Below, piece after piece: positions 5,103-21,504 of a DNA stretch of 64,000 nt. Under the pieces are notes generated by a model that saw nothing but the letters and a program-made list of their open reading frames with translations, searched no databases and had not been told where the DNA came from. The position numbers and the translations under genes were made by a program. The DNA comes from Candidatus Bathyarchaeota archaeon. Its GTDB lineage: Archaea; Thermoproteota; Bathyarchaeia; 40CM-2-53-6. The DNA lies in contig CAVTBR010000002.1 in the NCBI GenBank assembly GCA_963733055.1, positions 160,001 through 224,000 on the forward strand. Reading direction: 5' to 3'. Position 1 is the stretch's first letter. Each line of letters opens with the position of its first letter.

Positions 5103-5524
5103 ATGACCTGCCAGCCCCACTCTGTGCTGTTTGCGGGAAGGCATCCGCGACTTACGTTTGTCAAAACTGCGGTAGGCCAACATGCATCAACTGCTTCGAT
5201 GCGACCAGTTGGACCTGTAGAGACTGTGGCGAGAAAGTTTCAGTTGCTCGCGGTCAAGCGAACTATTCTCAGCAATTCCAATTTTCTTGGATAAGCATGT
5301 TGTTTCTGGTGGCTTTCGCGGCCATATTTGTTGGGACGTTGCTGATTGCTTTAGGTTCGATCTCGAATTTGGGCTCCGGCAGCGCGGGTGCGGTCATTCT
5401 GATTGGGCCGATTCCGATAATTCTTGGATCGGGACCGTATTCCTTCCCGCTCATTGCATTATCCGTGGGCGTAACGATAGTGGCGATAGTCTTCTTTCTT
5501 GTGCTGAGAAGACGGGTTTTCTGA
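5099..5524 (+). CDS. Zn-finger (four CxxC) fused to DUF131 membrane domain
   Basis: CAVC/CQNC/CINC/CRDC, then GAVILIGPIPIILGSG; overlaps the upstream stop. Confidence 0.8.
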   Translation: MNDLPAPLCAVCGKASATYVCQNCGRPTCINCFDATSWTCRDCGEKVSVARGQANYSQQFQFSWISMLFLVAFAAIFVGTLLIALGSISNLGSGSAGAVILIGPIPIILGSGPYSFPLIALSVGVTIVAIVFFLVLRRRVF

Positions 5525-7517: not shown

Positions 7518-8636
7518 CTATGGTTCGGCCTCGATACCATCCGATTGGTCCAACATTTTTTGAATAGTTGAGTTAAGGACTACTTCCGCAACATCAGTCG
7601 CGTACTCGCCGATTCTTCTCAGGCTCTCCGAGATTAAGCGGATCGCCGAGAGGTCACCCGCGGGAAGCTTCTCCTTGAGCAACCTCTCAACCAGTTTCGA
7701 TTCGAGGTCGGTAACTTTGTTCCCTTCAAATAGTACGGTCTCCGCGAGTTTGTAATCGTAGGCGAAGAGAGCTCGCAGGGAGGTTTCCATCATTTTGGAG
7801 GATTGCATGCTCAGCGCGTTCGCGTCCTTGAACAAAGATGCTGAGGGAGCCTGTTGCAGGAGTAGCACGTTCACTCCGATTCTTGCGGCGTGATCCGCAG
7901 ACCTCTCAACGCTCTTGCTAATGATACGATATCCCAGGCATTCGACGGGGGAGGTTAAACCTATTCTCGAAAGCAGCGTGGGATGTTTTACGGCCCACTT
8001 AAGTTGCCTAATCACATACAAGCTGAACCTGTCGATCTCATCGTCAATCTTCACAACCTGATTTGCCAATTCTTTGTCTAGTCTCGAAAATGCCTGCATG
8101 GAATCCTGCTGCATTGCGTTCAGAATTGATAGCATCCTTCTCAGAGCATCCGGTACAAGCAGCTGTGGGTAACTTAACAGAACTTGCAAAGTTGCGCTCT
8201 GGGCAGACTCCGTAACTAACTCCGTGCCCACCAGCTTACCCCTCGCGACATCACGAATGGTATCCCGAATGGGGGCGGCGAGGTTTCCGGACTTAGACCT
8301 AATTTCAATAGTCGAGTAACCCGCAACGTAGAGCGAGATGATCATTCTAGTTAGAGCGTCGGGGTCAATGTTGGGGTTAAGAGACATTGTGCATCGGGTG
8401 CGTTCGTCGTCGTACTTCGTGCTGCCGAATGGAGTGAGAGTGAGTCCCCAGTTTTCCTGCTTGCTAAACTCGACGCGGCCTCCCTTTCTGAGACCTGCTT
8501 CCTGAACCCAAGGCTTGGGGAGTGACACTATGTAGGATCCGCGGCCCGTCACCTGGACGCGTCGTACATATCGATCCTCAGCGGCTGATGGTTCTTCTCC
8601 TGTCTCCTTCTTTGGATCCGGGGGATTTGCTTTCAT
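7518..8636 (-). CDS. phoU: archaeal phosphate uptake regulator: AbrB-like N-terminal domain + PhoU domains
   Basis: RRVQVTGRGSYIVSLPKPW (AbrB-like); DDEIDR and ERSADHA (PhoU). Confidence 0.9.
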   Translation of the reverse strand: MKANPPDPKKETGEEPSAAEDRYVRRVQVTGRGSYIVSLPKPWVQEAGLRKGGRVEFSKQENWGLTLTPFGSTKYDDERTRCTMSLNPNIDPDALTRMIISLYVAGYSTIEIRSKSGNLAAPIRDTIRDVARGKLVGTELVTESAQSATLQVLLSYPQLLVPDALRRMLSILNAMQQDSMQAFSRLDKELANQVVKIDDEIDRFSLYVIRQLKWAVKHPTLLSRIGLTSPVECLGYRIISKSVERSADHAARIGVNVLLLQQAPSASLFKDANALSMQSSKMMETSLRALFAYDYKLAETVLFEGNKVTDLESKLVERLLKEKLPAGDLSAIRLISESLRRIGEYATDVAEVVLNSTIQKMLDQSDGIEAEP

Positions 8637-8640
8637 GATC

Positions 8641-9267
8641 TCAAGTCTTCGATCCGGTTACGATGTAAACTACTGAGTCTCCGATGTAACATGCGTGATC
8701 AGCAATTCTCTCCAGATACCTCAACACCAAGGTTGACGCGAGAGCGCATCTGACTGTGAGTGTCTTATCATTGGCCATCGCGGCGGCGTACTTGTAGTAT
8801 ACCTTGTCAACCTCATCGTCGTCTTTCCTTAGCGAGCGCGCAAGTTCCGTGTCGCGAGTCTTGAACGATTGAATACTTCTCTCAATCATGCTTGTAACTT
8901 TCTCACTTAACTCGTGAATTACAGACTTGTCGCAAGCTGACAAATCTCCGTAGGTCTTGAGAACCAGTGCGATGTCGTAGGCGTATCGTCCGAATCTGGA
9001 AAAACCATACGCGATTTCTAGACATGATTTGATGAAGCGTAAATCCGTTGCTACGGGTTGATAACGTGCTAAGAGGTCGACGCCGAGCTCCTCAACTTCC
9101 GCGGTTAGCTGCGCCAGCTGAGCTGCTCTCTTCCGCGCAGCATCGGTCGCCTTCTGCCCCTTTTCGTAGGCTTCGAGGGCCTTGACTACGGAATCTTGAG
9201 CTAGGTTGGACATGTCGACGATTGCGCTGGAGAGTCTTTCCTCACCCATGTCCATTAGCCGCGGCAT
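8641..9267 (-). CDS. phoU: phosphate signalling protein PhoU
   Basis: YQPVATDLR, DDDEVD, RYLERIADHACYI. Confidence 0.93.
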   Translation of the reverse strand: MPRLMDMGEERLSSAIVDMSNLAQDSVVKALEAYEKGQKATDAARKRAAQLAQLTAEVEELGVDLLARYQPVATDLRFIKSCLEIAYGFSRFGRYAYDIALVLKTYGDLSACDKSVIHELSEKVTSMIERSIQSFKTRDTELARSLRKDDDEVDKVYYKYAAAMANDKTLTVRCALASTLVLRYLERIADHACYIGDSVVYIVTGSKT

Positions 9268-9273
9268 CGAGAT

Positions 9274-10104
9274 TCACCCGAACTTTCCACTGATGTATCG
9301 TTCCGTGAGTTCGTTGTGTGGGTTCTGGAAGATTTCTGTCGTCGGCCCATACTCGATGAGCCTACCGAGGTAAAGGAATCCGGTAAGGTCGGAGATGCGC
9401 GCTGCCTGTTGCATATTGTGTGTTACAACGATTACTGTGTAGGTCGCCTTCAGTTTTGTTATGAGTTCCTCAATCTTTGCGGTCGCAATGGGGTCGAGTG
9501 CTGAGCAGGGTTCGTCCATGAGGATAACTTCAGGTTCCACGGCTAGGGTGCGTGCGATGCACAGTCTCTGCTGTTGTCCACCAGATATACTCGCCCCGGA
9601 TTCCTTTATTCTGTCACCGATCTCGTCCCAAAGGAATGATTTCTTGAGGTTCTCCTCAACTCTTTCTGCGATGACCTTCCGATCGTGAACTCCATTAAGC
9701 CGAAGGCCTGCCGCGACATTGTCGTATATTGACATTGTTGGGAATGGGTTTGGTTTTTGGAATACCATTCCTATCCTTCGACGCACGACGACAGGATCCA
9801 TTGACGAGGAAAGAATGTCTTCGCCGTCAAGTATTATGTGACCATTGGTCCACGCGTCAGGGGTGACCTCATGCATTCTATTTAGGCAGCGGATGAATGT
9901 GGATTTGCCGCACCCTGAGGGACCAATTATGGCGGTGACTGTATTTTCCTTGAATGAGATGGATATGTCATCTAGGACTTTTTTTCGGCCGAATCCAGCG
10001 TTTAGGCCTGTTACCTGCATTTTCTCCTTTAAATTGGACAAATCGAGGACTCTCTTGTCGGCTTCCGGAGTACTATCTAACTGTGTTACGAGTTCTGAAC
10101 TCAT
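9274..10104 (-). CDS. pstB: phosphate ABC transporter ATPase
   Basis: GPSGCGKST, GMVFQKPNPFP, SGGQQQRLCIAR, DEPCSALDP, YISGKFG. Confidence 0.97.
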   Translation of the reverse strand: MSSELVTQLDSTPEADKRVLDLSNLKEKMQVTGLNAGFGRKKVLDDISISFKENTVTAIIGPSGCGKSTFIRCLNRMHEVTPDAWTNGHIILDGEDILSSSMDPVVVRRRIGMVFQKPNPFPTMSIYDNVAAGLRLNGVHDRKVIAERVEENLKKSFLWDEIGDRIKESGASISGGQQQRLCIARTLAVEPEVILMDEPCSALDPIATAKIEELITKLKATYTVIVVTHNMQQAARISDLTGFLYLGRLIEYGPTTEIFQNPHNELTERYISGKFG

Positions 10105-10258
10105 GGTTAGCTACCGACCATGGCTTACTGTGAGGATTGGGTAATTGAATGCGAGTTATATGAATCATATAGATAACAGTGCTGACACATGTGCACGCAT
10201 GTTCACAATGCGTTTTCGCTAAATAAGAATCGGCGTCTACGTGCCTCCGATGATTCGT

Positions 10259-11530
10259 ATGTCTAGCAAGACCTCGAAACGTAATGTCGGAATAGTTGCT
10301 CTTGTTGTCGTCATCCTGGCGGCAGTTGCAGGAGGATACTACTTCACGACAATGAACAACAGTCAAAGCACGTCAGCAACATCCATGATGACCTCTGATA
10401 CCTCGATGATATCTTCAGAGTCATCGATAATGACTTCAGCAACCATGACTGAAACCTCCATGGCCTCGTCAACATCTTCTGTCGCAGGATACCAACCAAC
10501 CACGCCCGTCTCGCTTCTTGGAGCGGGGGCAACGTTTCCCGCCCCGTTACTTCAGAAATGGACGGTCACATACAACCAGCTATACCCCGCAGTCACCATA
10601 AGCTACAACCCGATCGGCAGTGGGGGCGGAATACAACAGATATCAGCAAAGACGGTGGACTTCGGAGCCTCGGACGCTCCGCTAAATAGCGCACAGTTCG
10701 CGGCGGCGCCAGGTCTATCTCTCTTCCCTGAGACACTTGGTGGCGTAGCTATAACCTACAATCTGGCGGCATGGGGCGTCGGCAATAACGTTACGTTGAA
10801 CTTCACGCCGGAAGTCATCGTTGGCATCTACTTGGGGAACATACTCAAATGGAATGACCCAGCTCTCGTAGCACTCAACCCTGGAGTGAATCTACCGAAC
10901 GGCTTCATCACCACAGTGCACAGGTCAGATGGCAGCGGAACCACATATGCATTCACGAACTACCTTTCCGTTGTCAGCCCAAACTGGGCATCGCAAGTAG
11001 GCTACAGCACGTCCGTTACTTGGCCTGCTGACACGAAACTTGGGGCCATCGGTGTTGGTTCAAAGGGTAATTCCGGAGTTGCAGGCACAGTCGCGAACAC
11101 CAATGGGGCAATAGGATATGTTGACCTCATCTACGCAGTCCAGAACAATCTTGGAGTAGGAGCCGTCAAGAATGCAGCAGGCAATTTCGTTGTACCGACT
11201 CTACAAACGATTCTCTACGCAGCCCAGAACGCAACCGGCACCCCCAACCCCGCAGACCTTCGAGTGCACATAGTTAACGCCGCAGGAGCACAATCCTATC
11301 CGATCGCAACCTACACCTACATACTCGTCTACAAAGACCTGTCAGCAAACCCTAGCACGACTCACGACAAAGCAGTAGCGCTAGTTCACTTCCTTTGGTG
11401 GGCGATCCACGATGGACAGCAGTATTCATCGCCCTTGGACTACGTGCCACTCCCTGCCAATGTCGTTGCAGCGGATGAACAATTCCTGATGACTCTGAAC
11501 TATCAAGGCACAGTCCTCCTAACCGGATAG
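10259..11530 (+). CDS. pstS: phosphate ABC transporter substrate-binding protein, N-terminal anchor + Ser/Thr/Met linker
   Basis: GAGATFPAP, IGSGGG, DFGASDAPL, HRSDGSGTT, YPIATYTY; start could be 10241-10259. Confidence 0.96.
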   Translation: MSSKTSKRNVGIVALVVVILAAVAGGYYFTTMNNSQSTSATSMMTSDTSMISSESSIMTSATMTETSMASSTSSVAGYQPTTPVSLLGAGATFPAPLLQKWTVTYNQLYPAVTISYNPIGSGGGIQQISAKTVDFGASDAPLNSAQFAAAPGLSLFPETLGGVAITYNLAAWGVGNNVTLNFTPEVIVGIYLGNILKWNDPALVALNPGVNLPNGFITTVHRSDGSGTTYAFTNYLSVVSPNWASQVGYSTSVTWPADTKLGAIGVGSKGNSGVAGTVANTNGAIGYVDLIYAVQNNLGVGAVKNAAGNFVVPTLQTILYAAQNATGTPNPADLRVHIVNAAGAQSYPIATYTYILVYKDLSANPSTTHDKAVALVHFLWWAIHDGQQYSSPLDYVPLPANVVAADEQFLMTLNYQGTVLLTG

Positions 11531-11544
11531 AAGTCAGCTACGCA

Positions 11545-12519
11545 ATGCAAGAGCAACTTGAGAAAAGCCGTGTTCCGAAAAGGACACGGCGCCACGATTT
11601 TTTGCACTTTGCCCTAATTATCGCCGCGGTAGCAATTCCAGTTGTCGCGGCTCTTACCGTGTACTCGCTTTACAATGGAAGTTTAGACTCTATTCAAGCC
11701 CTAGGCTTCAGCTTTTTGACCGGTACCCTATGGGTTCCAAATCCTCCCAACGGTGGGGCTCCAATCTTGGGAGCAGTCCCCGCAATGTATGGGTCAATAG
11801 TCACGACGTTAATTGCGCTGCTATTTGCGGTTCCAATTAGCTTGGGTGTCGCTCTATTTCAATCAGAGTTGGCTCCCAGCAAAATACGACTCCCTTCAAT
11901 CTTTCTAGTTGAATTACTTGCTGCCGTGCCGAGCGTAGTGTATGGACTCTGGGGACTCTTCTACCTCGTTCCATTCATGAGCAATTACATAGATCCAGGA
12001 CTCCTCGGCTCACTCGGGTTCATCCCACTATTCCAGGGCGAAACAAATGGGCTCGGAATGCTGACGGCCGGTCTCATTTTGGCGATCATGATCACCCCCT
12101 ACGCGTCCGCAGTTATGCGAGAGGTTGTCGCAGCAGTCCCACGTAGTCAACGAGAGGCTTGCATCGCGTTGGGCGGAACAAGGCTAGAGACAATCCGAAT
12201 GGCAGTCGTTCCTTATGCCAGCACGGGCATAATCGCGGCCATCGTCCTAGCAATGGGCAGGGCAATCGGAGAAACCATGGCGGTCATCATGGTCATCGGC
12301 AACGTCGCAAGAATCAGCCCTTCATTGTTCCTTCCTGCAGAAACCATTCCAAGCGTGATCGCCAATGAGTTCACAGAAGTAGCGGGAAACAACATTTATC
12401 TCGCCGCGCTATTCGAGCTCGGTTTGATTCTTTTCGTGATCGCTTTTCTAATGAATCTAGTGGGTAGGGTACTAATTTCGAGACTGAGTTTCCATCCCGG
12501 AAGGTCAACAGATGTTTAG
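11545..12519 (+). CDS. pstC: phosphate ABC transporter permease PstC
   Basis: VELLAAVPSVVYGLWG, RAIGETMAV, IANEF. Confidence 0.95.
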   Translation: MQEQLEKSRVPKRTRRHDFLHFALIIAAVAIPVVAALTVYSLYNGSLDSIQALGFSFLTGTLWVPNPPNGGAPILGAVPAMYGSIVTTLIALLFAVPISLGVALFQSELAPSKIRLPSIFLVELLAAVPSVVYGLWGLFYLVPFMSNYIDPGLLGSLGFIPLFQGETNGLGMLTAGLILAIMITPYASAVMREVVAAVPRSQREACIALGGTRLETIRMAVVPYASTGIIAAIVLAMGRAIGETMAVIMVIGNVARISPSLFLPAETIPSVIANEFTEVAGNNIYLAALFELGLILFVIAFLMNLVGRVLISRLSFHPGRSTDV

Positions 12520-13357
12520 ATCCCTGAGTAGACGAAGGTTCAACGATAGGTTGTTTACGGCTCTAGCTACAGTTGCTTTCCTAATTCCCATAATCCCACT
12601 CGCCTCAATCCTCTACGAAACCGCCTCCCTAGGCCATAGCGTGCTGAATCTCAACTTTTTCACACAGGTCACTCCTCCGATTGGTGGAAGTGGCGGTGGC
12701 ATATTGAATGCGGTAGAGGGTAGCTTGGTCGTGGTCGGAATAGCGTCTATAATCGGTATACCCATAGGACTCTTCGCCGGGGCCTATCTATCCGAATACC
12801 CGGGTAGGCTCGCAAACAATATCAGGCTTGTCGCGGAGGTTCTGACGGGGGTTCCGTCCATCGTGACGGGCATCGTTGTATACGTTTTGATCGTGGCCAC
12901 ATTACACAGATTTTCAGCCCTCGCCGGCGGGATTGCTTTAAGTTTCATGATGATACCCATTGTGGCGATATCGACACACGAGTCCCTCAGACTTGTGCCC
13001 TCTTATATCAAGGAGGGCGGCTTGGCTCTCGGAATATCGAGGTCAAAGACGCTCCTCTACATCCTCGTGTCGAGTGCCAAGAGTGGAATCATTACGGGCA
13101 TTGCTCTGGCGGTTGCTCGAATCATGGGGGAAACCGCTCCCCTGCTCTTCACCGCTCTCGGCAGCCAATTCTTGATGAACAGCGTTTTCGACCCGACAGC
13201 CACTATGACCGTGCTGATCTTTGACTTTGGAACTTCCCCGTACCCGAACGCGCATGCCTTTGCTTGGGGCGCAGCCTTCACACTACTGATGATAGTCTTG
13301 AGCCTGAATATAGTAGTCCGAGTCGCGTCAAGATTGAAACCCACGGTCCCCATTTGA
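12512..13357 (+). CDS. pstA: phosphate ABC transporter permease PstA
   Basis: GVPSIVTG, ARIMGETAPLLFTA. Confidence 0.95.
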   Translation: MFRSLSRRRFNDRLFTALATVAFLIPIIPLASILYETASLGHSVLNLNFFTQVTPPIGGSGGGILNAVEGSLVVVGIASIIGIPIGLFAGAYLSEYPGRLANNIRLVAEVLTGVPSIVTGIVVYVLIVATLHRFSALAGGIALSFMMIPIVAISTHESLRLVPSYIKEGGLALGISRSKTLLYILVSSAKSGIITGIALAVARIMGETAPLLFTALGSQFLMNSVFDPTATMTVLIFDFGTSPYPNAHAFAWGAAFTLLMIVLSLNIVVRVASRLKPTVPI

Positions 13358-13426: not shown

Positions 13427-15205
13427 TCAGGCCATGTTGATCAGTTGCTTCGGCGTGAGCAGCCAGATCAGGGTTGCACACTTTCCCATCTGCAACTTCT
13501 CAACCTGTAGCTTGCAAACGCTTCCCTTCTTGAGTAGCGGTCTCGCGCTAGCGCTTCCGGTCGTCAGGGTTGAGATCAAAGCGCTCAGTTGGGGTTCGTG
13601 TCCCACCATGAGCAAACGCCTGCATGGTGAGTATTTTTCTTGCACTGCTCTGATGGCTTCTTCCGGAAGTACTTCGGGTCTTAGCGCCTGTGAGGTTTGA
13701 ATTATCTGCCCCACCCCATACTCGCGTGCAACGACGAACGCCGTCTCCAAAGCCCGCCTATACGGGCTCGTCAAGATCAAATCAAACTGAACATTTAGGC
13801 GACGTAATCCTTTGGCGATCCGACGGAGCCTTTTCATACCCTTCATCGTTAGGGGTCGATCCGAGTCCAGCGGGTAAGCCGCATCGCCCCGAGTAACTGC
13901 GATCCCATGCCTAAGGATGAACAGCGTCTTTGAAGGGGAGGATGCTACGCCGGTCTGCTCATGAATAACTGGCTTCCAGATGCTGCCGAATTTTGGAACA
14001 GACTTTAGAAAGCGTTCGGTCGCCTCAATCTTCCGCCTTTCGAGGTCCAACCATATCTCCGCAACGGCAGATGGTACATTCTCTTTCTTCCATCTGAACT
14101 CAACTAGATCTTTCATGAGGACCTCAAGGTCTTGAATTTGACCCATTAGTCGAGCGAGGAGCGTGGCGGTTCTAAGTTGCCTGCTTTCCAATCCCACTAC
14201 TGGCTGTAGCATCTCGATTGTGTACCGTAGTGGTTTGAAGGCGAGTCGTACTCTATGAATCGACGCGTAATCCGCGGGGGTCAGTGCTTCAATTTTCTTG
14301 CTCAAGTTATCAAAGGAGACATCTAATGAGGCATCGACAATCCTGTGAGAGTTCTCTGATGTTGTAGTGGCGCAACGCGCGTTGAGTCTAATCCTTGCTC
14401 GGTTGACGGCGTTCTCAATGAATTTTCTATCTGATTTCCAGGGAATCTTATTGGCCGACTTGAGGTACGCGGTTTCTCTGTCCCGGAGCTCGTCATAGAA
14501 TTCTTTCATCTCTGGAAGTTCTTTGAGAAAACCGCGTGTCCTTACCATTTCGATGTGTACGTCTCGAAGGACGCTTAGCTCTTTGAGTTGGTCTTTTAGT
14601 TTGACGCGGGCTTGTCTGAGGATGTTATCTGGATTGAACCTGTCAATCAAGTCGATGGTTGTGGTGAGGCGTCGAATACTGACGCGGAGGTCGTGCACGT
14701 TTTTGACCGACGCGAGTTGCTGGTAGCGCTTCAAGCTCTCTACATAATCGTTCCATCGCTTGTCCAAGGCGATGATTATGAAATTAAGGACGTCCGGCTT
14801 GGCTGATCTTCGTCGTATGGGAGCCTTCACGGCGACTCTGCGTTGTGAGACTCTCTTGGGGGCAACAGTCTTCACAGGTTTCAAAATCGGTTTTGGTTTC
14901 TGTATGGTTTTTGGTTTCGGCCGTGGTCGCGGCTTCTGTACCGCTTTCGGTTTCAGCCGTGATTGCGTACTTGGTTTCGGCGGTGGTTGCGGTTTTGATT
15001 TCTTGACCGGTTTTAACCTCTTGATGGGCTTTTGGGTAACATGCCGGGACTTGCTTCGCTGTACTTTACTTGCACGTACTCGTCTGACTTGAATTCTTTC
15101 CCTTGAACCGCTCGCTCTGCTTGGTCTCGCTCTGCTTGGTGCCCGCACCGCGACTCGGCGCTTCTTCGGGACCACTATCTTTCTTACCCTGCTCCTTCTT
15201 CTCAA
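13427..15205 (-). CDS. polybasic tail + CHAD domain + SixA-like phosphohistidine phosphatase fusion
   Basis: VHDLRVSIRRL, IHRVRLAFKPLRY, MGQIQDLEV (CHAD); LFILRHG, RPLT, LTSPYRRALETA, VGHEP (SixA); first ~135 aa are K/R/P-rich. Confidence 0.88.
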   Translation of the reverse strand: MRRRSRVRKIVVPKKRRVAVRAPSRARPSRASGSRERIQVRRVRASKVQRSKSRHVTQKPIKRLKPVKKSKPQPPPKPSTQSRLKPKAVQKPRPRPKPKTIQKPKPILKPVKTVAPKRVSQRRVAVKAPIRRRSAKPDVLNFIIIALDKRWNDYVESLKRYQQLASVKNVHDLRVSIRRLTTTIDLIDRFNPDNILRQARVKLKDQLKELSVLRDVHIEMVRTRGFLKELPEMKEFYDELRDRETAYLKSANKIPWKSDRKFIENAVNRARIRLNARCATTTSENSHRIVDASLDVSFDNLSKKIEALTPADYASIHRVRLAFKPLRYTIEMLQPVVGLESRQLRTATLLARLMGQIQDLEVLMKDLVEFRWKKENVPSAVAEIWLDLERRKIEATERFLKSVPKFGSIWKPVIHEQTGVASSPSKTLFILRHGIAVTRGDAAYPLDSDRPLTMKGMKRLRRIAKGLRRLNVQFDLILTSPYRRALETAFVVAREYGVGQIIQTSQALRPEVLPEEAIRAVQEKYSPCRRLLMVGHEPQLSALISTLTTGSASARPLLKKGSVCKLQVEKLQMGKCATLIWLLTPKQLINMA

Positions 15206-16784
15206 TTGGTGGTTGCAGGCTCCTGATCGTGATGAGTCTCAATGGGGGGTAATCTCGTTAGAACCTTTTCGACTTTGGATCTCAATTCCTTGTGGATGGC
15301 AAGCGGTGACCTGTTTCCGTTAATGGTATCGAACTTGTAGTCTAGCGTCAGGCGTTGGAATTCCGTGCGCATTCTTCGCTGATAATCGACGAAGCATTGG
15401 TACATATCTCCCGAGCGGCGAATGTCCATCCCAGATTCCCAAAAGTCGAGCATCCCGCTCTTCATCAGGTTTCGTTCGCGAGGATGCGGGGGTTGACGGC
15501 GAGGTAGAATACCGCGTCGGGGACTAAGGCGATACTGTAAACTTTCTGCACCCATTCCCTACTCATCCCCCTGACGACCTCCCGCGCCATGAGAGTGTAG
15601 ATGTAGCGGTCCGCGAGCACTACGAAACCCGCTTTCAGGGCTGGGATGATGTTGTTCTCGAGCTGGTCCGCGAAGTCAGTCGCGTAGAAGATGGTCATTG
15701 TGACCGGACTTAATGTATTGCCCAGCAGAGCTTCCTGCAACTCCGCGGATACGAGACGCGACCTCTTTAGACCAACATCTATTGTCGGATAACCTAGGAC
15801 TTCTAGATGCTTGTGCAGCAGATCAATTTGCGTAGACCTACCTGACCCATCCGACCCTTCGACGACCAGCAGCTTTCCCTTGAGTTGACCAAGGTTAACC
15901 TTTGGGAGCCCTCTTCCAAAGAAGTGCTTCTCAGAACCGTTATTCTGGAACGGAAATGTCACGTCTCCGGCATCCGCTAGGGTCAGTTCGTCATTAGAGG
16001 GGGTCATGGCTTGCAGCGGTTTCTCTTCAGACGCCTCCCTCAAGGCACTCCTAAATTTCTGCTCCGGGTACTGTACCCCGCGCAGACCCGGCGGAACGGG
16101 GAGCGGTCCCTTCGCTTTATGCTTCGATAGATCGATTCGCTGGTTGACAAAATCACGAATAGCCTGCTGCTGGTCATCCGGAGGCCGACTTGCGTCGATT
16201 ACAATGAAGTTATACTTTCGAGCGATGTTGTGGTATTCATTGTTCAGCATGCCCGCGAATATCCGGAAGCTCTCATATGGGTCTGGGGAGAGGTTGAGGT
16301 CCATTCCAGCTTCGTGGTACTTCAGTTGCGGACGGCTTTCGAGAATTCGTGCGAGTGCCGTCTCCAATGGAACGTCAAAGAAGAATGTAGCGTCTGGGTG
16401 TCGTGCGAAACTATAGAGGTTCCTCACCCATTCCGGATCGCATCCCCGAACCACGTCACGCACGAACGCAGTGTACACGTACCGGTCAGCGAGTACCAGA
16501 TAGCCAGCTCTTAGTAACGGGAGAATTTGCCTCTCATATCTATCCGCAAAGTCAGTGCAGTGAATCAGAGAGAACGTGGTCGGGGTCAGCAGGCGTTTCT
16601 TCTTTCCCCTCCGTGTTGCCTTCTTGACCAGAGAGGATGAATTCCATTCCGTGAAAATGACCTTGTACCGTTCTAGCTCAAGCCACCGGCGTAGAAGATA
16701 GATCTGAGTAGACTTCCCCGACCCGTCAATGCCTTCGACGGCGATCAGTTTTCCGGGCAAAGGGTCTTGTTCCGACGAAATCAT
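15202..16784 (-). CDS. tandem thymidylate-kinase-like protein, candidate single-chain family-3 polyphosphate kinase (apparent -1 frameshift at ~15477)
   Basis: Domain 1 EGIDGSGKST...DRYVYT; domain 2 EGSDGSGRST...DRYIYT. One added base near 15477 joins ...ILAERNLMKSGMLDFWESGMD (528 codons). ATG 16784 overlaps the ppx stop. Confidence 0.85.
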
Positions 16785-18292
16785 GACGTGATCACTATCT
16801 TCTTCTTGTATGTCTTCTCGAATAGCCGCGCTCCGTAGTTCAGCGCCCACTTTTCAAGAAGCAAGTCCCCCTTCCCTTTAAGCATCAAGATTACTTTCCT
16901 CTTTCTAACAGTGACTTTCACGCTTTCCACTCTGCCGGAGTGTTCTCGGTCGAGCCCTTCCGCGAGTCGAAGCAGACTGGCTAACTTAACGACCGTTCGT
17001 CGTTGTTTCGGAGACAGATCCATGTACTCCCTGTGGCTGGCTTTGGGGAAGGAACGGCTGTGGTAGCGGGTTACTGCAGCGATAACCGCCTTATCAGAGT
17101 CATCTACACCTATCAAAGGGGACGCGTTGATCAGATACAAGGAATTCTTATGATGATTCTTCGTTCCAATGTAATATCCAATGTCATGAAGGAGCGAAGC
17201 CACTTCAAGCAAAGTTCGTTCGGTTGCGCCTAATTTGTGGAGTTTTTTCGTCCCGTCAAAGAGCGCGATGGCAAATCTTGTAACAGTTTGCGCATGCTCT
17301 GCTTCATAATCATATTTTCTCCCCAAAAGCCTCGCGGAAGTGACGAGCTGGGTTCGATCTGGTGGGCCCGAGTCGCGCCCCAATCCGCGTGCCATATCAA
17401 TAAGTAAACCCTCTCTGACTCCGACACGCGGAATCTCGATTTCTTGTATCCTTGCTTCCTTGGCCACAATTTGGAGAACTATTATGGCGGGTATGATAAC
17501 GTCGGCTCTATCCGGCCGAAGTCCGAAATCTCTGATCCTCTCTTCGTAGGATCTTGATTGTAATTGTTTGAGAATTGAGTCGAGGTCATCGAGTGTTATG
17601 GAGGCGTCACTGTCTGCGTCGCATAATTGCACGCGGAGGCCGCCCAGCGATTCGACGTTACCTCCCGTAGCGATACAGAGGTCTACTGCGTGTTCGCCGA
17701 TTTCCTTTCTGAGCCGAGTTCCGGAAACGTTGATGTATTCTCGGGCGAGTTGACGGAAGACTCTATCTCCTCGTTTCCTTTGTTCGAGCATTTGCAGAAG
17801 CCTTACGGTACCAATACTGAAACTCTCCGTTGCGATAATCTCGTGTTCAGTTGCGAGGCTGACCTCTACGCTTCCGCCGCCAATATCGACGAGTAGGGCG
17901 ACTTTACCGTTGAGGCGAATGGCCTTTGATACGGCTACGTAGATCAGGCGCGCTTCTTCCTCGGCGCTGATTATGTCTATCATTATCTCTGTGGCTTTGG
18001 AGATTTGCCTAATGCAGTACTCTCGGTTCCTGGCTTCTCTTAGAGCGCTGGTTCCTACCGCCCTCACCGATTTGACTTTGTGTTGATTGATCAATTTCCG
18101 AAACTTGAGGAACGCATTCATCGCTTCAACAAGGCGCGCATCGGTTATCTCACCGCTCGCGAAAACGTCGGCACCTAGGCGGACAGGCTCACGGTCCGTA
18201 TGTATTATGTGGATTCGACCCTCATCGTCAGCTGACGCAATAGCTAGCCGCATCGCATTCGAGCCAACATCGATTGCGGCAAGCTTGGGCAT
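16781..18292 (-). CDS. ppx: exopolyphosphatase Ppx/GppA family with C-terminal HD domain
   Basis: AAIDVGSNAMRL, TSALREA, EEEARL, DIGGGSVE, GVREG, LLHDIG. Confidence 0.95.
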   Translation of the reverse strand: MPKLAAIDVGSNAMRLAIASADDEGRIHIIHTDREPVRLGADVFASGEITDARLVEAMNAFLKFRKLINQHKVKSVRAVGTSALREARNREYCIRQISKATEIMIDIISAEEEARLIYVAVSKAIRLNGKVALLVDIGGGSVEVSLATEHEIIATESFSIGTVRLLQMLEQRKRGDRVFRQLAREYINVSGTRLRKEIGEHAVDLCIATGGNVESLGGLRVQLCDADSDASITLDDLDSILKQLQSRSYEERIRDFGLRPDRADVIIPAIIVLQIVAKEARIQEIEIPRVGVREGLLIDMARGLGRDSGPPDRTQLVTSARLLGRKYDYEAEHAQTVTRFAIALFDGTKKLHKLGATERTLLEVASLLHDIGYYIGTKNHHKNSLYLINASPLIGVDDSDKAVIAAVTRYHSRSFPKASHREYMDLSPKQRRTVVKLASLLRLAEGLDREHSGRVESVKVTVRKRKVILMLKGKGDLLLEKWALNYGARLFEKTYKKKIVITS

Positions 18293-19650: not shown

Positions 19651-21504
19651 TCAATTGAGAGTTAGGGAACGCAACTGTCGTAGCATTGATGTTTTCTTTC
19701 TTTGATGTGTTTCCATTCTTCGTAGTATGTCGTTGAGTGCCGTAACCGCCTTCACCATATATGGGCCTTTGTTCAGCATAACGCAATCCGCGCGGACACC
19801 CATTGCTGCATCTGTTATTTCAGCCCGAGAGGGCATGCCTTTCTTCGCTAGAGTTTCGAGAACTTCCGACGCCCATATTACCGGGGTGTGGGCCGCTTCG
19901 CAGATCCACAAAATCTCTTCCTGTACTTCAGCCAATCGTTCGTAACCGCACTCGACGGCGAGGTCCCCACGTGCTATCATCACACCGACAGCATCTGTCC
20001 ACCGCATTGCTGCGAACAACATGGATGGAAGGTTTTCGAAGCCTTCTCTAGTCTCGATCTTCAGAACGATCCCTTTTCGGCGGCTCTTCAACTTCTTAAG
20101 CTGCATTATCAGCGCTTCAACATCTTCCTTATTTTTCGCAAAGGAAAGGGCCACACTATCGGCGCATTTCGTTGCAACCGAAAGAGCTTCGAAGTCTTTC
20201 TGACCGAGGGCATCTGTGTCCAACCTAGTGTCAGGTAAGTTAATTCCCCTATCAGGTCTTAGTTTGGACCCCGCCGGTTTAGCGTGTGTAATGCGGACGC
20301 GGACTTGACCCTCGGTCTTGGCTTCTATTACGCCACCGATCTTACCGTCGTCGAACCAGATCGATTGACCAGGCTTCAAACCCGCAAGTGCTTCCCGAGT
20401 GAGACCGCCAACCTTGGGCAACTCCTCTCCGCCTTGACCCTCTGACCCTGCCGCAGGGTTGCCTGTTAGAAGCAGTTTGTCGCCAATCCGAAGGAGTATG
20501 CTAGTTTCAACCGGCTTCATGTCGCCGATTCTACTTTCAGCTGGCTGAGATTCGGTTTCCGGTTTCGTCTTCAGCAGTGTGTCTGGGCCAACGTAGGCCG
20601 TGCTCTGGGATTCAGCCCAGCGTGACTCGTCGACTTCTCCAGTAATTGTTAGAAGCCGTTTTTTCCCGCGCAGATCCGTGAATCTAATCATTGAGCCAAC
20701 CGCTAAGGAGGCTAACCAGTCGCCTTGAACCGGCAACCATGCATCTGCGTTTTCGTTCGGTATGGTTGGTCGCTCGTAGGGGGTTAACCAGATTCGTGCA
20801 GGGTGAATTACGTTTCCAACTTCATCTCGCTTCGGTCCCCACTTAATGACACGAGGTCCAGGTCCAATTTGTCCAGTGCGTAGTTTGCGTCCTGGCAAAT
20901 CGAATTCGACTTGGCAATCCTTTTCGAGTTCCTTCGAAGCCTGACGAAGGTTACGCACCATTCGGTGCCAGATAGACGCGTCATCTCTTGCACAATTTAT
21001 CCGCACACAATCAGTTCCGCAATCGATCAGATCGCGAACCAAAGTGTAATCGTCTGCGGCCTCAGTAGGGACGGTCACCATTATCCGTACGGCCCTATCG
21101 ATTGGTCTCCGTCCCAAGAGTTTCCGAGTATGTTCCTCGAGAAGCCTCGCGCCTTCTTGGAACCTTAGAGCGGGATGCTTAGCCGGGCGCAAGGCTTCCT
21201 CGCCCATTAAGCGTAGGAGGATGTTGAGGACGGATTCGATAGTAATCAGAACGTGACTTTCGCTTCGTCCAAGTGAGGATAAGCCAATCTCGGCTAATTC
21301 AGCTTGTAACTCGCGCATATCGAAGCGCCTGAGCGCGAGATAGTGGACTAGATTTCGAGCACTCTCTCTCCAAGAAGGGTCTGTGGACCGGATGAGTTGA
21401 GCAAAGTGTTCCTCCGCTTCCAACAAATTCACATGAATACGCCGTAACTCATTGATGAGTTTGGTAAGGGTCTTATCGTAACTTGACCTCTGTGGGTTTT
21501 TCAT
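19651..21504 (-). CDS. pyk: atypical long pyruvate kinase (N-terminal extension, enlarged B domain, no C domain)
   Basis: RIMVT, RINCA, DLPGRKLRTG, DDGKI, KIET, MIARGDLAVE, SRAEITDA, CVMLNKG. Confidence 0.88.
   Translation of the reverse strand: MKNPQRSSYDKTLTKLINELRRIHVNLLEAEEHFAQLIRSTDPSWRESARNLVHYLALRRFDMRELQAELAEIGLSSLGRSESHVLITIESVLNILLRLMGEEALRPAKHPALRFQEGARLLEEHTRKLLGRRPIDRAVRIMVTVPTEAADDYTLVRDLIDCGTDCVRINCARDDASIWHRMVRNLRQASKELEKDCQVEFDLPGRKLRTGQIGPGPRVIKWGPKRDEVGNVIHPARIWLTPYERPTIPNENADAWLPVQGDWLASLAVGSMIRFTDLRGKKRLLTITGEVDESRWAESQSTAYVGPDTLLKTKPETESQPAESRIGDMKPVETSILLRIGDKLLLTGNPAAGSEGQGGEELPKVGGLTREALAGLKPGQSIWFDDGKIGGVIEAKTEGQVRVRITHAKPAGSKLRPDRGINLPDTRLDTDALGQKDFEALSVATKCADSVALSFAKNKEDVEALIMQLKKLKSRRKGIVLKIETREGFENLPSMLFAAMRWTDAVGVMIARGDLAVECGYERLAEVQEEILWICEAAHTPVIWASEVLETLAKKGMPSRAEITDAAMGVRADCVMLNKGPYMVKAVTALNDILRRMETHQRKKTSMLRQLRSLTLN

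Follow-up and report, generated by a model that had tools for sequence, protein, structure and literature searches.

Can the two subunits of an archaeal polyphosphate (polyP) kinase be encoded as a single protein? The question is raised by a minus-strand gene at positions 15202..16784 of a 64,000-nucleotide stretch (the window) of the genome of a Candidatus Bathyarchaeota archaeon (assembly GCA_963733055.1, contig CAVTBR010000002.1, positions 160,001 to 224,000). An earlier note, made from the sequence alone, had proposed that its product is a fused PPK3 and had stated that Sulfolobus acidocaldarius encodes a pair of thymidylate-kinase-like subunits next to the exopolyphosphatase gene ppx. That statement is accurate. 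In PMC12995831, PPK3 was defined in 2026 from this one thermoacidophile as a two-subunit enzyme (SaPPK3), consisting of catalytic cPPK3 (Saci_2019) and regulatory rPPK3 (Saci_2020), here called the c and r subunits. Both have the dTMP kinase fold, lie beside ppx, and form an alpha2beta2 enzyme with an r-r core. PPK3 moves phosphate reversibly between polyP and ADP and is without dTMP kinase activity. Since PPK3 has already been published, the window gene does not define a new enzyme family. What is new here is a single-chain, bathyarchaeal, bacterial-derived PPK3; the fused form of this known enzyme has been little noticed. The paper mentions a fused form as one doubtful exception only, no mention of one was found in the searched parts of its supplements, and a literature search found no other PPK3 work. 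We put the probability that the gene encodes a single-chain PPK3 at about 0.8.

The gene consists of the following parts, with coordinates in the window.

15202..16784, minus strand: fused ppk3 gene (cPPK3 domain, linker, rPPK3-type domain), 527 amino acids (aa) with the missing base put back
16101..16784, minus strand: domain 1, catalytic cPPK3-type, residues 1-228, with Walker A GSGKST (16707-16733), DRY, a basic stretch following TEWNSS, and R/K in the lid
15936..16100, minus strand: linker, residues 229-283, predicted to be disordered (AlphaFold2 pLDDT below 50 in the ortholog from congener G019)
15205..15935, minus strand: domain 2, putative rPPK3-type pseudokinase, residues 284-527, with Walker A GSGRST (15831-15857) and DRY retained, without the basic cleft stretch and without a basic lid
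15476..15477, minus strand: frame-breaking gap of 1 nt (the minus strand is one G short), located by alignment with congeners G019 and G022 and by a contig of metagenome run X1

As assembled, the span is 1583 nt, which is no multiple of 3. From the ATG at 16784, an open reading frame (ORF) on the minus strand runs through domain 1, the linker, and about three-quarters of domain 2 and ends at a TGA at 15465-15467; the last ~88 codons of domain 2 lie in another frame, in an ORF at 15202-15555. The start is backed by G022, where the open frame begins only 2 codons upstream of the ATG. Most of what the earlier note had described holds: there are two thymidylate-kinase-fold domains on the minus strand (PF02223 matches two stretches of the protein, with a Pfam E value of 6e-40), their P-loops read GSGKST and GSGRST (K>R), and one ORF crosses the ~55- to 60-aa linker without a stop. 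The note had also placed both domains in one frame, which is incorrect for the assembled sequence, given the TGA inside domain 2.

To which family do the two domains belong? A tandem duplication of a true thymidylate kinase, which would phosphorylate dTMP, is one candidate reading. The protein passes the cutoffs of both PF02223 and TIGR00041 (156 bits against 83 for the latter), the fold is common to both kinds of enzyme, and the predicted misannotation has occurred, as seen in the database label "jgi:dTMP kinase". However, TIGR00041 does not discriminate, because a Sulfolobaceae-type cPPK3 passes it too (105.8 bits), and NCBIfam release 20 had no PPK3 model to offer for these proteins, so that the dTMP kinase label will persist in annotation pipelines. 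Domain 1 matched the solved cPPK3 homolog of Sulfurisphaera tokodaii (STK_15430; PDB 2plr, 4nzy, 4rzx, and 5h70) over 209 residues at ~50% identity (E = 1.2e-63), compared with 1e-13 or weaker for true Tmk structures. STK_15430 was itself deposited as a dTMP kinase; it has one domain, and its r subunit is the product of a separate gene downstream, whereas both domains are in one chain here. For the r subunit, 401 genomes of the phylum were scanned and 16 loci were fetched. One family, which accounted for 14 of the 15 genomes with a match, had c followed by r. The c subunit of one such locus matched 2plr over all 213 residues (467 bits), suggesting that the locus is from S. tokodaii or a very close relative. 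A second Sulfolobaceae-type locus encodes, one after another, a phosphatase of SixA type, PPX, c, r, and a protein with a weak CHAD match. Identity to the Sulfolobaceae-type subunits was 52% for window domain 1 against c (E = 1e-74) and 29% for domain 2 of G019 against r (E = 3e-29).

Phylogeny gave the same assignment. Hidden Markov models (HMMs) of both domains served to extract the c/domain-1 and r/domain-2 regions of every locus and protein. Because of its frame break, domain 2 of the window gene itself did not enter the trees; its orthologs from G019 (91% identical) and G022 (80%) stood in for it. In a FastTree phylogeny of 116 rows, 15 canonical archaeal Tmks, the host genome's included, were set apart from c plus r (branch value 100, starred). 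All 50 r rows formed one clade (98, starred), with the 51 c rows as the remainder. A quick IQ-TREE analysis of 49 rows (LG+C20+F+G4) recovered the r clade (100, starred) and the Tmk clade (98, starred) and placed window domain 1 inside c. In both trees, window domain 1 grouped with c, and domain 2 of G019 and G022 fell in the r clade with the Sulfolobaceae r subunits (98 in FastTree and 100 in IQ-TREE, both starred). Domain 1 is thus an ortholog of catalytic cPPK3 and domain 2 an ortholog of regulatory rPPK3, as the earlier note had proposed, on the evidence of sequence, phylogeny, and operon context. Both lie outside the canonical Tmk clade, the separate tmk that the note had suggested looking for is present on contig C1 (G000:C1:1202624-1203151, where G000 is the host genome; 114.6 bits, 205-aa frame) and groups with canonical Tmk, and the operon described below is a polyP operon. 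A duplicated thymidylate kinase is extremely improbable.

Is domain 2 a regulatory domain or a second active site? We counted motifs by regular expression over 130 pairs. Common to all c sequences are GSGK[ST], DRY, a stretch rich in K/R that follows TEWNSS, and R and K in the lid; the Walker A Lys is present in the c subunits of 120 of 121 non-Sulfolobaceae pairs. Domain 1 has the intact Walker A Lys (GSGKST), the DRX Arg (LADRYVYT), and a K/R-rich stretch after TEWNSS that aligns with that of Sulfolobaceae c subunits. Domain 2 is like bacterial and thaumarchaeal r subunits: it has GSGRST, keeps DRY, and is without the basic stretch and the basic lid. Basic cleft residues are described as kept in c and not in r (PMC12995831, section 7), and in our set the net charge of a 26-aa segment had a median of +4 in 127 c subunits versus 0 in 128 r subunits. 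Among the 121 non-Sulfolobaceae r subunits, the Walker A Lys position was occupied by Arg in 113, His in 4, Trp in 1, and Lys in 0, with 3 unmatched; in the Alicyclobacillus-type clade it has decayed further, to His/Tyr. In P-loop kinases, replacement of this Lys by Arg is in general crippling. We infer from these motifs that domain 2 is catalytically inactive.

The mark published for r subunits is a different one, namely that the DRX Arg "is replaced in rPPK3s" (PMC12995831). All 9 Sulfolobaceae-type r subunits indeed had Gly at that position, with Arg (6) or Lys (3) in the P-loop. By contrast, at least 113 of the 121 non-Sulfolobaceae r subunits kept the DRX Arg, and DRY was invariant in 37 aligned fused proteins. 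The published signature thus fails outside Sulfolobaceae; in the set examined, loss of the DRX Arg holds for Sulfolobaceae only, and Walker A Lys-to-Arg is the general mark. The retained Arg and the invariant DRY could also be read as signs of a PPK3-fold enzyme with a different reaction, which might use another acceptor (AMP, GDP, or other nucleoside diphosphates) or have an active domain 2. There is some precedent, as two-domain PPK2 enzymes of class II act on AMP (PMC12995831). Against this stand the loss of the Walker A Lys in r subunits, with its further decay in the Alicyclobacillus-type clade, and the missing basic lid and stretch of domain 2, and we consider a different reaction improbable. 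The class II PPK2s (e.g., PA3455 of Pseudomonas aeruginosa) offer an analogous solution to that of the single-chain PPK3, with one inactive and one active P-loop kinase domain per chain. However, they belong to another family (PF03976 had no match on the fused protein), and their inactive domain is N-terminal, so that the order is reversed (PMC12995831).

An AlphaFold2 model of the G019 protein, made with an alignment of 37 fused sequences, had a mean pLDDT of 81.5 and a pTM of 0.78. Most of both domains scored above 90 and residues 229-283 below 50. The best PDB matches of this model in Foldseek were 5h70, 4nzy, and 2plr, with TM scores of 0.92-0.96 on the target (0.96 for 5h70). The pTM suggests that the two domains pack in a defined way. 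A complex prediction for two copies of G019 domain 2 (residues 284-527) scored 0.30 against a mark of 0.42 and was used neither way.

Is the gene intact in the organism? The ORFs of the congeners are uninterrupted (G019, 527 aa, 91% identical; G022, 526 aa, 80%), and when aligned with them the window is one G short, with CTCGC-GAACG against CTCGCGGAACG. We compared the region with contigs from three soil-metagenome runs. A Logan contig of run X1 (270 nt, depth 2.9) restores the frame, with "C put in behind 15476" on the plus strand, and is otherwise identical to the window over 15256-15524. Runs X2 and X3 yielded only short pieces that were less than 95% alike and came from other organisms. 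The window contains a second frame break, near 1003-1016, in a Memo-like (AmmeMemoRadiSam-type) gene at 729-1584 on the minus strand, where Pfam Memo positions 2-174 lie in one ORF and 175-269 in the next. Because the X1 contig carries the base and the Memo-like gene is also split, we read the break in ppk3 as an assembly indel, very probably a 1-nt error in the consensus.

A genuine 1-nt deletion would instead make the gene a strain pseudogene, with a truncated domain 2 and a crippled PPK3. The break is, after all, present in the assembly, and the locus can decay in this genus, as shown by a 24-aa stub in G017 and the frame-broken copies in G013. However, the otherwise identical X1 contig has the base, and conservation after the break is about the same as before it (~90% identity to G019, read by eye, like the rest of the gene). 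The split Memo-like gene also points to assembly indels, and the genome assembly comprises 3 contigs for 2.88 Mb, which suggests a long-read assembly. A pseudogene is therefore a rather unlikely reading, and we retain the consensus error. Programmed frameshifting was dropped as a candidate, since relatives read straight through the site and no slippery run was seen there. In the single bin of G013, contigs C19, C25, and C37 contain three copies of the locus with ppx and fused ppk3, each frame-broken, which indicates a bin of mixed strains or an assembly rich in indels.

Is the fusion itself real, or did a sequencing error remove a stop between two separate genes? A scan of one genome per species gave at least 596 confirmed stretches, and the following counts refer to the best 80. 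Of these loci, 74 are bacterial (43 from Verrucomicrobiota) and 6 are thaumarchaeal. Split pairs, with c before r, make up 75; a single ORF is seen in 2 (L024, with a garbled stretch inside domain 1, and L027 of Vicinamibacteria), and 3 end before r. Bacteria have far more c-r pairs than "a few". Coupling within split pairs is tight, by an ATGA overlap or by a single in-frame stop and an immediate start, so that one point change or indel suffices to fuse them. In eight thaumarchaeal loci (L033, L035, L036, L038, L039, and L104-L106), c and r share a frame, separated by one stop, with the r start 3-6 nt on. The prevalence of such pairs is what makes a lost stop conceivable. Nevertheless, the window ORF itself crosses the linker into domain 2, and G019, G022, and 17 further metagenome clusters at 67-96% identity (JGI, ENA, and Logan) also read through. 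In addition, other X1 contigs show no change from the window over 15644-16079 and 16131-16288, so that no stop is hidden in most of the linker. That c and r are two genes here is hardly credible, and the fused chain that the earlier note had proposed is confirmed by the intact single ORFs of the congeners.

The clade of the window comprises 19 sequences that are 67-97% identical, all fused, from several assemblers, and monophyletic (100, starred). A search with the G019 protein for sequences of near its length gave 489 matches; among the 120 clusters listed, 49 had both domains in one chain. Where the source database gave a name, it was "dTMP kinase", including one from Alicyclobacillus tolerans. 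In a FastTree phylogeny of concatenated c and r from 129 pairs (38 fused and 91 split; the frame-broken L007 was left out), the fused state required 9 changes, 8 of them forced by starred branches. This is an upper-leaning estimate, because some Verrucomicrobiota fusions may be artifacts: the "fused" clusters P0021-P0025 are nearly identical to split loci in which c and r overlap in different frames and may reflect indels. Safer fused clades are the window's (19 sequences), the Alicyclobacillus-type (6), P0029/P0030, L027/P0036/P0043, and P0028/P0031/P0033/P0035. In a library of representatives at 50% identity, 5 of the best 150 matches spanned both domains, plus 6 junction-spanning fragments; this library is a poor counter of fusions, as a single-domain representative can conceal a fused cluster. 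In the window's lineage the fusion is genuine; it also recurs in other clades and is not unique to this genome.

Where did the fused gene come from? The fused clade nests among bacterial split pairs from Bdellovibrionota, FCPU426, Ignavibacteriota, Terriglobia, and Chloroflexota, within which 4 bathyarchaeal and 3 bacterial rows form a starred set of 7 (97). Forcing the fused clade together with the thaumarchaeal pairs cost 97 lnL units (approximately unbiased [AU] test, p-AU = 5.8e-6, for a group named after the first tree was seen). The neighboring ppx gene agrees. Its product is of the long bacterial type with domain III, unlike the PPX of the SaPPK3 unit, and is 42-48% identical over its full length to the products of the ppx genes that precede the nearest bacterial c-r pairs, compared with 25% over 300 residues only for the Sulfolobaceae-type PPX. 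The window lineage descends separately from bacterial split pairs, not from the Sulfolobaceae or thaumarchaeal clades, and the AU test rejects a common origin with thaumarchaeal PPK3.

What does the gene work with? It is flanked by the following polyP and phosphate genes, assigned by Pfam.

16781..18292, minus strand: exopolyphosphatase gene ppx, 503 aa (Ppx-GppA and domain III/HD), coupled to ppk3 by ATGA
13427..15205, minus strand: CHAD plus SixA-type histidine phosphatase fusion, 592 aa (CHAD 166-364, His_Phos_1 428-503), with a putative TTG start
10241..13357, plus strand: pstS, pstC, and pstA, phosphate ABC uptake (PBP_like_2 and two BPD_transp_1), convergent with the operon
9274-10104, minus strand: pstB (ABC_tran)
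8641-9267, minus strand: phoU (PhoU)
7518-8636, minus strand: phoU with an AbrB/MazE-type domain (PhoU plus MazE_antitoxin)

The translational coupling that had been claimed is seen in the overlap of the ppx stop with the ppk3 ATG (ATGA, 16781-16784) and of the ppk3 stop with the TTG of the CHAD-SixA gene (TTGA, 15202-15205). The operon has a GC content of 0.515, against 0.514 for the window, and genes for archaeal ribosomal proteins and RNA polymerase are found 9-15 kb away on this contig. The arrangement resembles that of SaPPK3, where c precedes r and the unit also includes ppx, CHAD, and a phosphatase of SixA type (PMC12995831), and the subunits are alike in a c with the Walker A Lys, DRX Arg, and basic stretch and an r without that stretch. 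It differs in that the subunits of SaPPK3 are separate, whereas here c and r are in one polypeptide with a ~55-aa linker. CHAD and SixA are fused in the window and separate in the SaPPK3-type unit, the window r domain keeps the DRX Arg and has the Walker A Lys-to-Arg exchange, and the host is mesophilic rather than thermoacidophilic.

A polyP synthesis, storage, and degradation operon next to Pst had been proposed. The adjoining plus-strand pstSCA genes bear out the setting, but "synthesis" is not assured, since SaPPK3 prefers ATP formation from polyP, i.e., polyP consumption (PMC12995831). Neither ppk1 nor ppk2 is in the window, as had been stated; in a six-frame search of the whole host assembly, PPK1 had no match and the only PPK2 match was a separate, intact 269-aa gene on contig C3. 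With PPK2 on another contig, PPK3 is not the sole polyphosphate kinase of the genome.

The N-terminal ~140 aa of the CHAD-SixA protein are very basic and proline-rich (54 K+R, 21 P, and 3 D+E in the first 150) and may, judging by composition, be a polyP-binding tail. The CHAD-SixA architecture is common to G015, G016, and G022. A 617-aa protein encoded 1.4 kb upstream of ppx (19651-21504, minus strand) has a pyruvate-kinase barrel domain in residues 321-578 only, its N-terminal half being unassigned.

Does PPK3 take the place of another kinase in this cluster? We compared 23 genomes of one Bathyarchaeia genus; they are related and incomplete, and the pattern is descriptive, not statistical. 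The window-type PPX was found in 16, PPK2 in 12 (including all four with PPK3), PPK1 (PF13090) in 10, and fused PPK3 in 4 (G000, G013, G019, and G022). No genome had both PPK1 and PPK3. Of the 16 PPX genomes, 10 had PPK1, 4 had PPK3, and 2 had neither (G009, 80% complete, and G017, 73%). An apparent split pair in G009 was rejected as probable bin contamination (2.97-kb contig, GC content of 0.61 versus ~0.50 at the genus loci). In G015, which has no PPK3, a P-type ATPase, PPK2, CYTH, PPK1, an 800-aa protein, PPX, and CHAD-SixA are encoded in a row (L121, C1:14500-28500). The PPK1 there is 730 aa long and has all four PPK1 domains (PF13089, PF02503, PF17941, and PF13090); PPK1 has an unrelated fold and mechanism, and its gene lies upstream of ppx, whereas ppk3 lies between ppx and the CHAD-SixA gene. 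The 800-aa protein of G015, a fusion of CHAD, metallophosphoesterase, and PPX domain III, looks uncharacterized.

In G016, CHAD-SixA directly follows PPX, and no trace of ppk3 was found between ppx and CHAD-SixA in G014, G015, or G016. G017, which is without PPK1 and PPK3, matches the window at the DNA level from ppx through the first 91 nt of ppk3 and again from within the CHAD-SixA gene. Between its frameshifted ppx and CHAD-SixA sits a 24-aa stub equivalent to PPK3 residues 9-32 at 75% identity (L124, G017:C4:1337500-1345500, ~5166-5237), by its sequence a deletion scar or relic. From the layout of G015 and G016 and the G017 stub, ppk3 is an insert that separates two genes found side by side in the PPK1 genomes examined, and at least one deletion of it has occurred. 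RpoD identity to G000 was 96% for G019, 93% for G013, 83% for G014-G016 (all with PPK1), 81% for G022 (PPK3), and 77% for G017 (relic). Neither PPX nor RpoD identities put the four PPK3 genomes in a single tidy clade; from the latter, more than one gain, loss, or transfer of ppk3 in the genus is likely. The complementary distribution of PPK1 suggests that PPK3 supplies the polyP kinase function of the cluster. The within-genus swap between PPK1 and PPK3, together with the G017 relic, provides comparative support for the in situ replacement idea of PMC12995831. In Data S1 of that paper, all 23 Bathyarchaeota rows examined give PPK1, PPK2, and PPK3 as 0, and the window gene is the first PPK3 in Bathyarchaeia to which we can point.

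How might the single-chain PPK3 work? Domain 1 would move the terminal phosphate reversibly between polyP and ADP/ATP, as in Sulfolobus cPPK3. Domain 2, as a pseudokinase, would activate or stabilize domain 1 by packing against it and probably by oligomerization, and the flexible linker of ~55 residues would fix the ratio of c and r domains at 1:1. The gene would be translated in one coupled unit with PPX and CHAD-SixA, beside the Pst/PhoU uptake genes; in this genus it occurs only in genomes in which no PPK1 was found. We also entertain, as an unlikely extension, that the fused enzyme is a self-sufficient polyP synthase that displaced PPK1, in which the r-type domain, with its invariant DRY Arg and P-loop Arg, forms a second phosphate/polyP site that retains the chain as it grows or controls which way the reaction runs.

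Several points weigh against a single-chain PPK3 with this role. Domain 2 fails the published rPPK3 mark, as its LADRYIYT retains the DRX Arg. The assembled sequence itself carries the frame break, and read-level support for the extra base is a single contig, of depth 2.9, whose run may share its sample with the assembly. With an intact PPK2 in the genome, the polymer need not be the product of PPK3, and the preference of SaPPK3 for polyP consumption leaves room for either direction in vivo. S. acidocaldarius is the sole source of assayed PPK3 (PMC12995831). PPK1 was judged absent from metagenome-assembled genomes of 87-96% completeness, and the PPK1/PPK3 pattern may represent as few as one or two evolutionary events. 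The naming of the AU group after the first tree belongs here as well.

A natural single-chain PPK3 from a mesophilic soil archaeon would be simpler for biochemistry and ATP regeneration, with one gene and a fixed 1:1 ratio of domains. The database search also turned up other architectures that involve this family. In three representatives (P0241, P0255, and P0258; 650-696 aa), c and r are followed by the domain III/HD of Ppx-GppA at the C terminus, so that PPK3 and a portion of PPX make up a triple fusion. Eight others (P0335, P0340, P0355, P0359, P0328, P0310, P0309, and P0316; 1030-1276 aa) join a cPPK3-like domain, which scores 235-260 bits against the fused profile, with an MFS transporter and a kinase-like domain of APH/DUF2252 type, and in one case with an SPX domain. 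Finally, P0306 (2575 aa) and P0345 (1610 aa) are giant polyvalent-type proteins with an inorganic-pyrophosphatase (InPase) domain and a cPPK3-like domain, one of them with ART-PolyVal.

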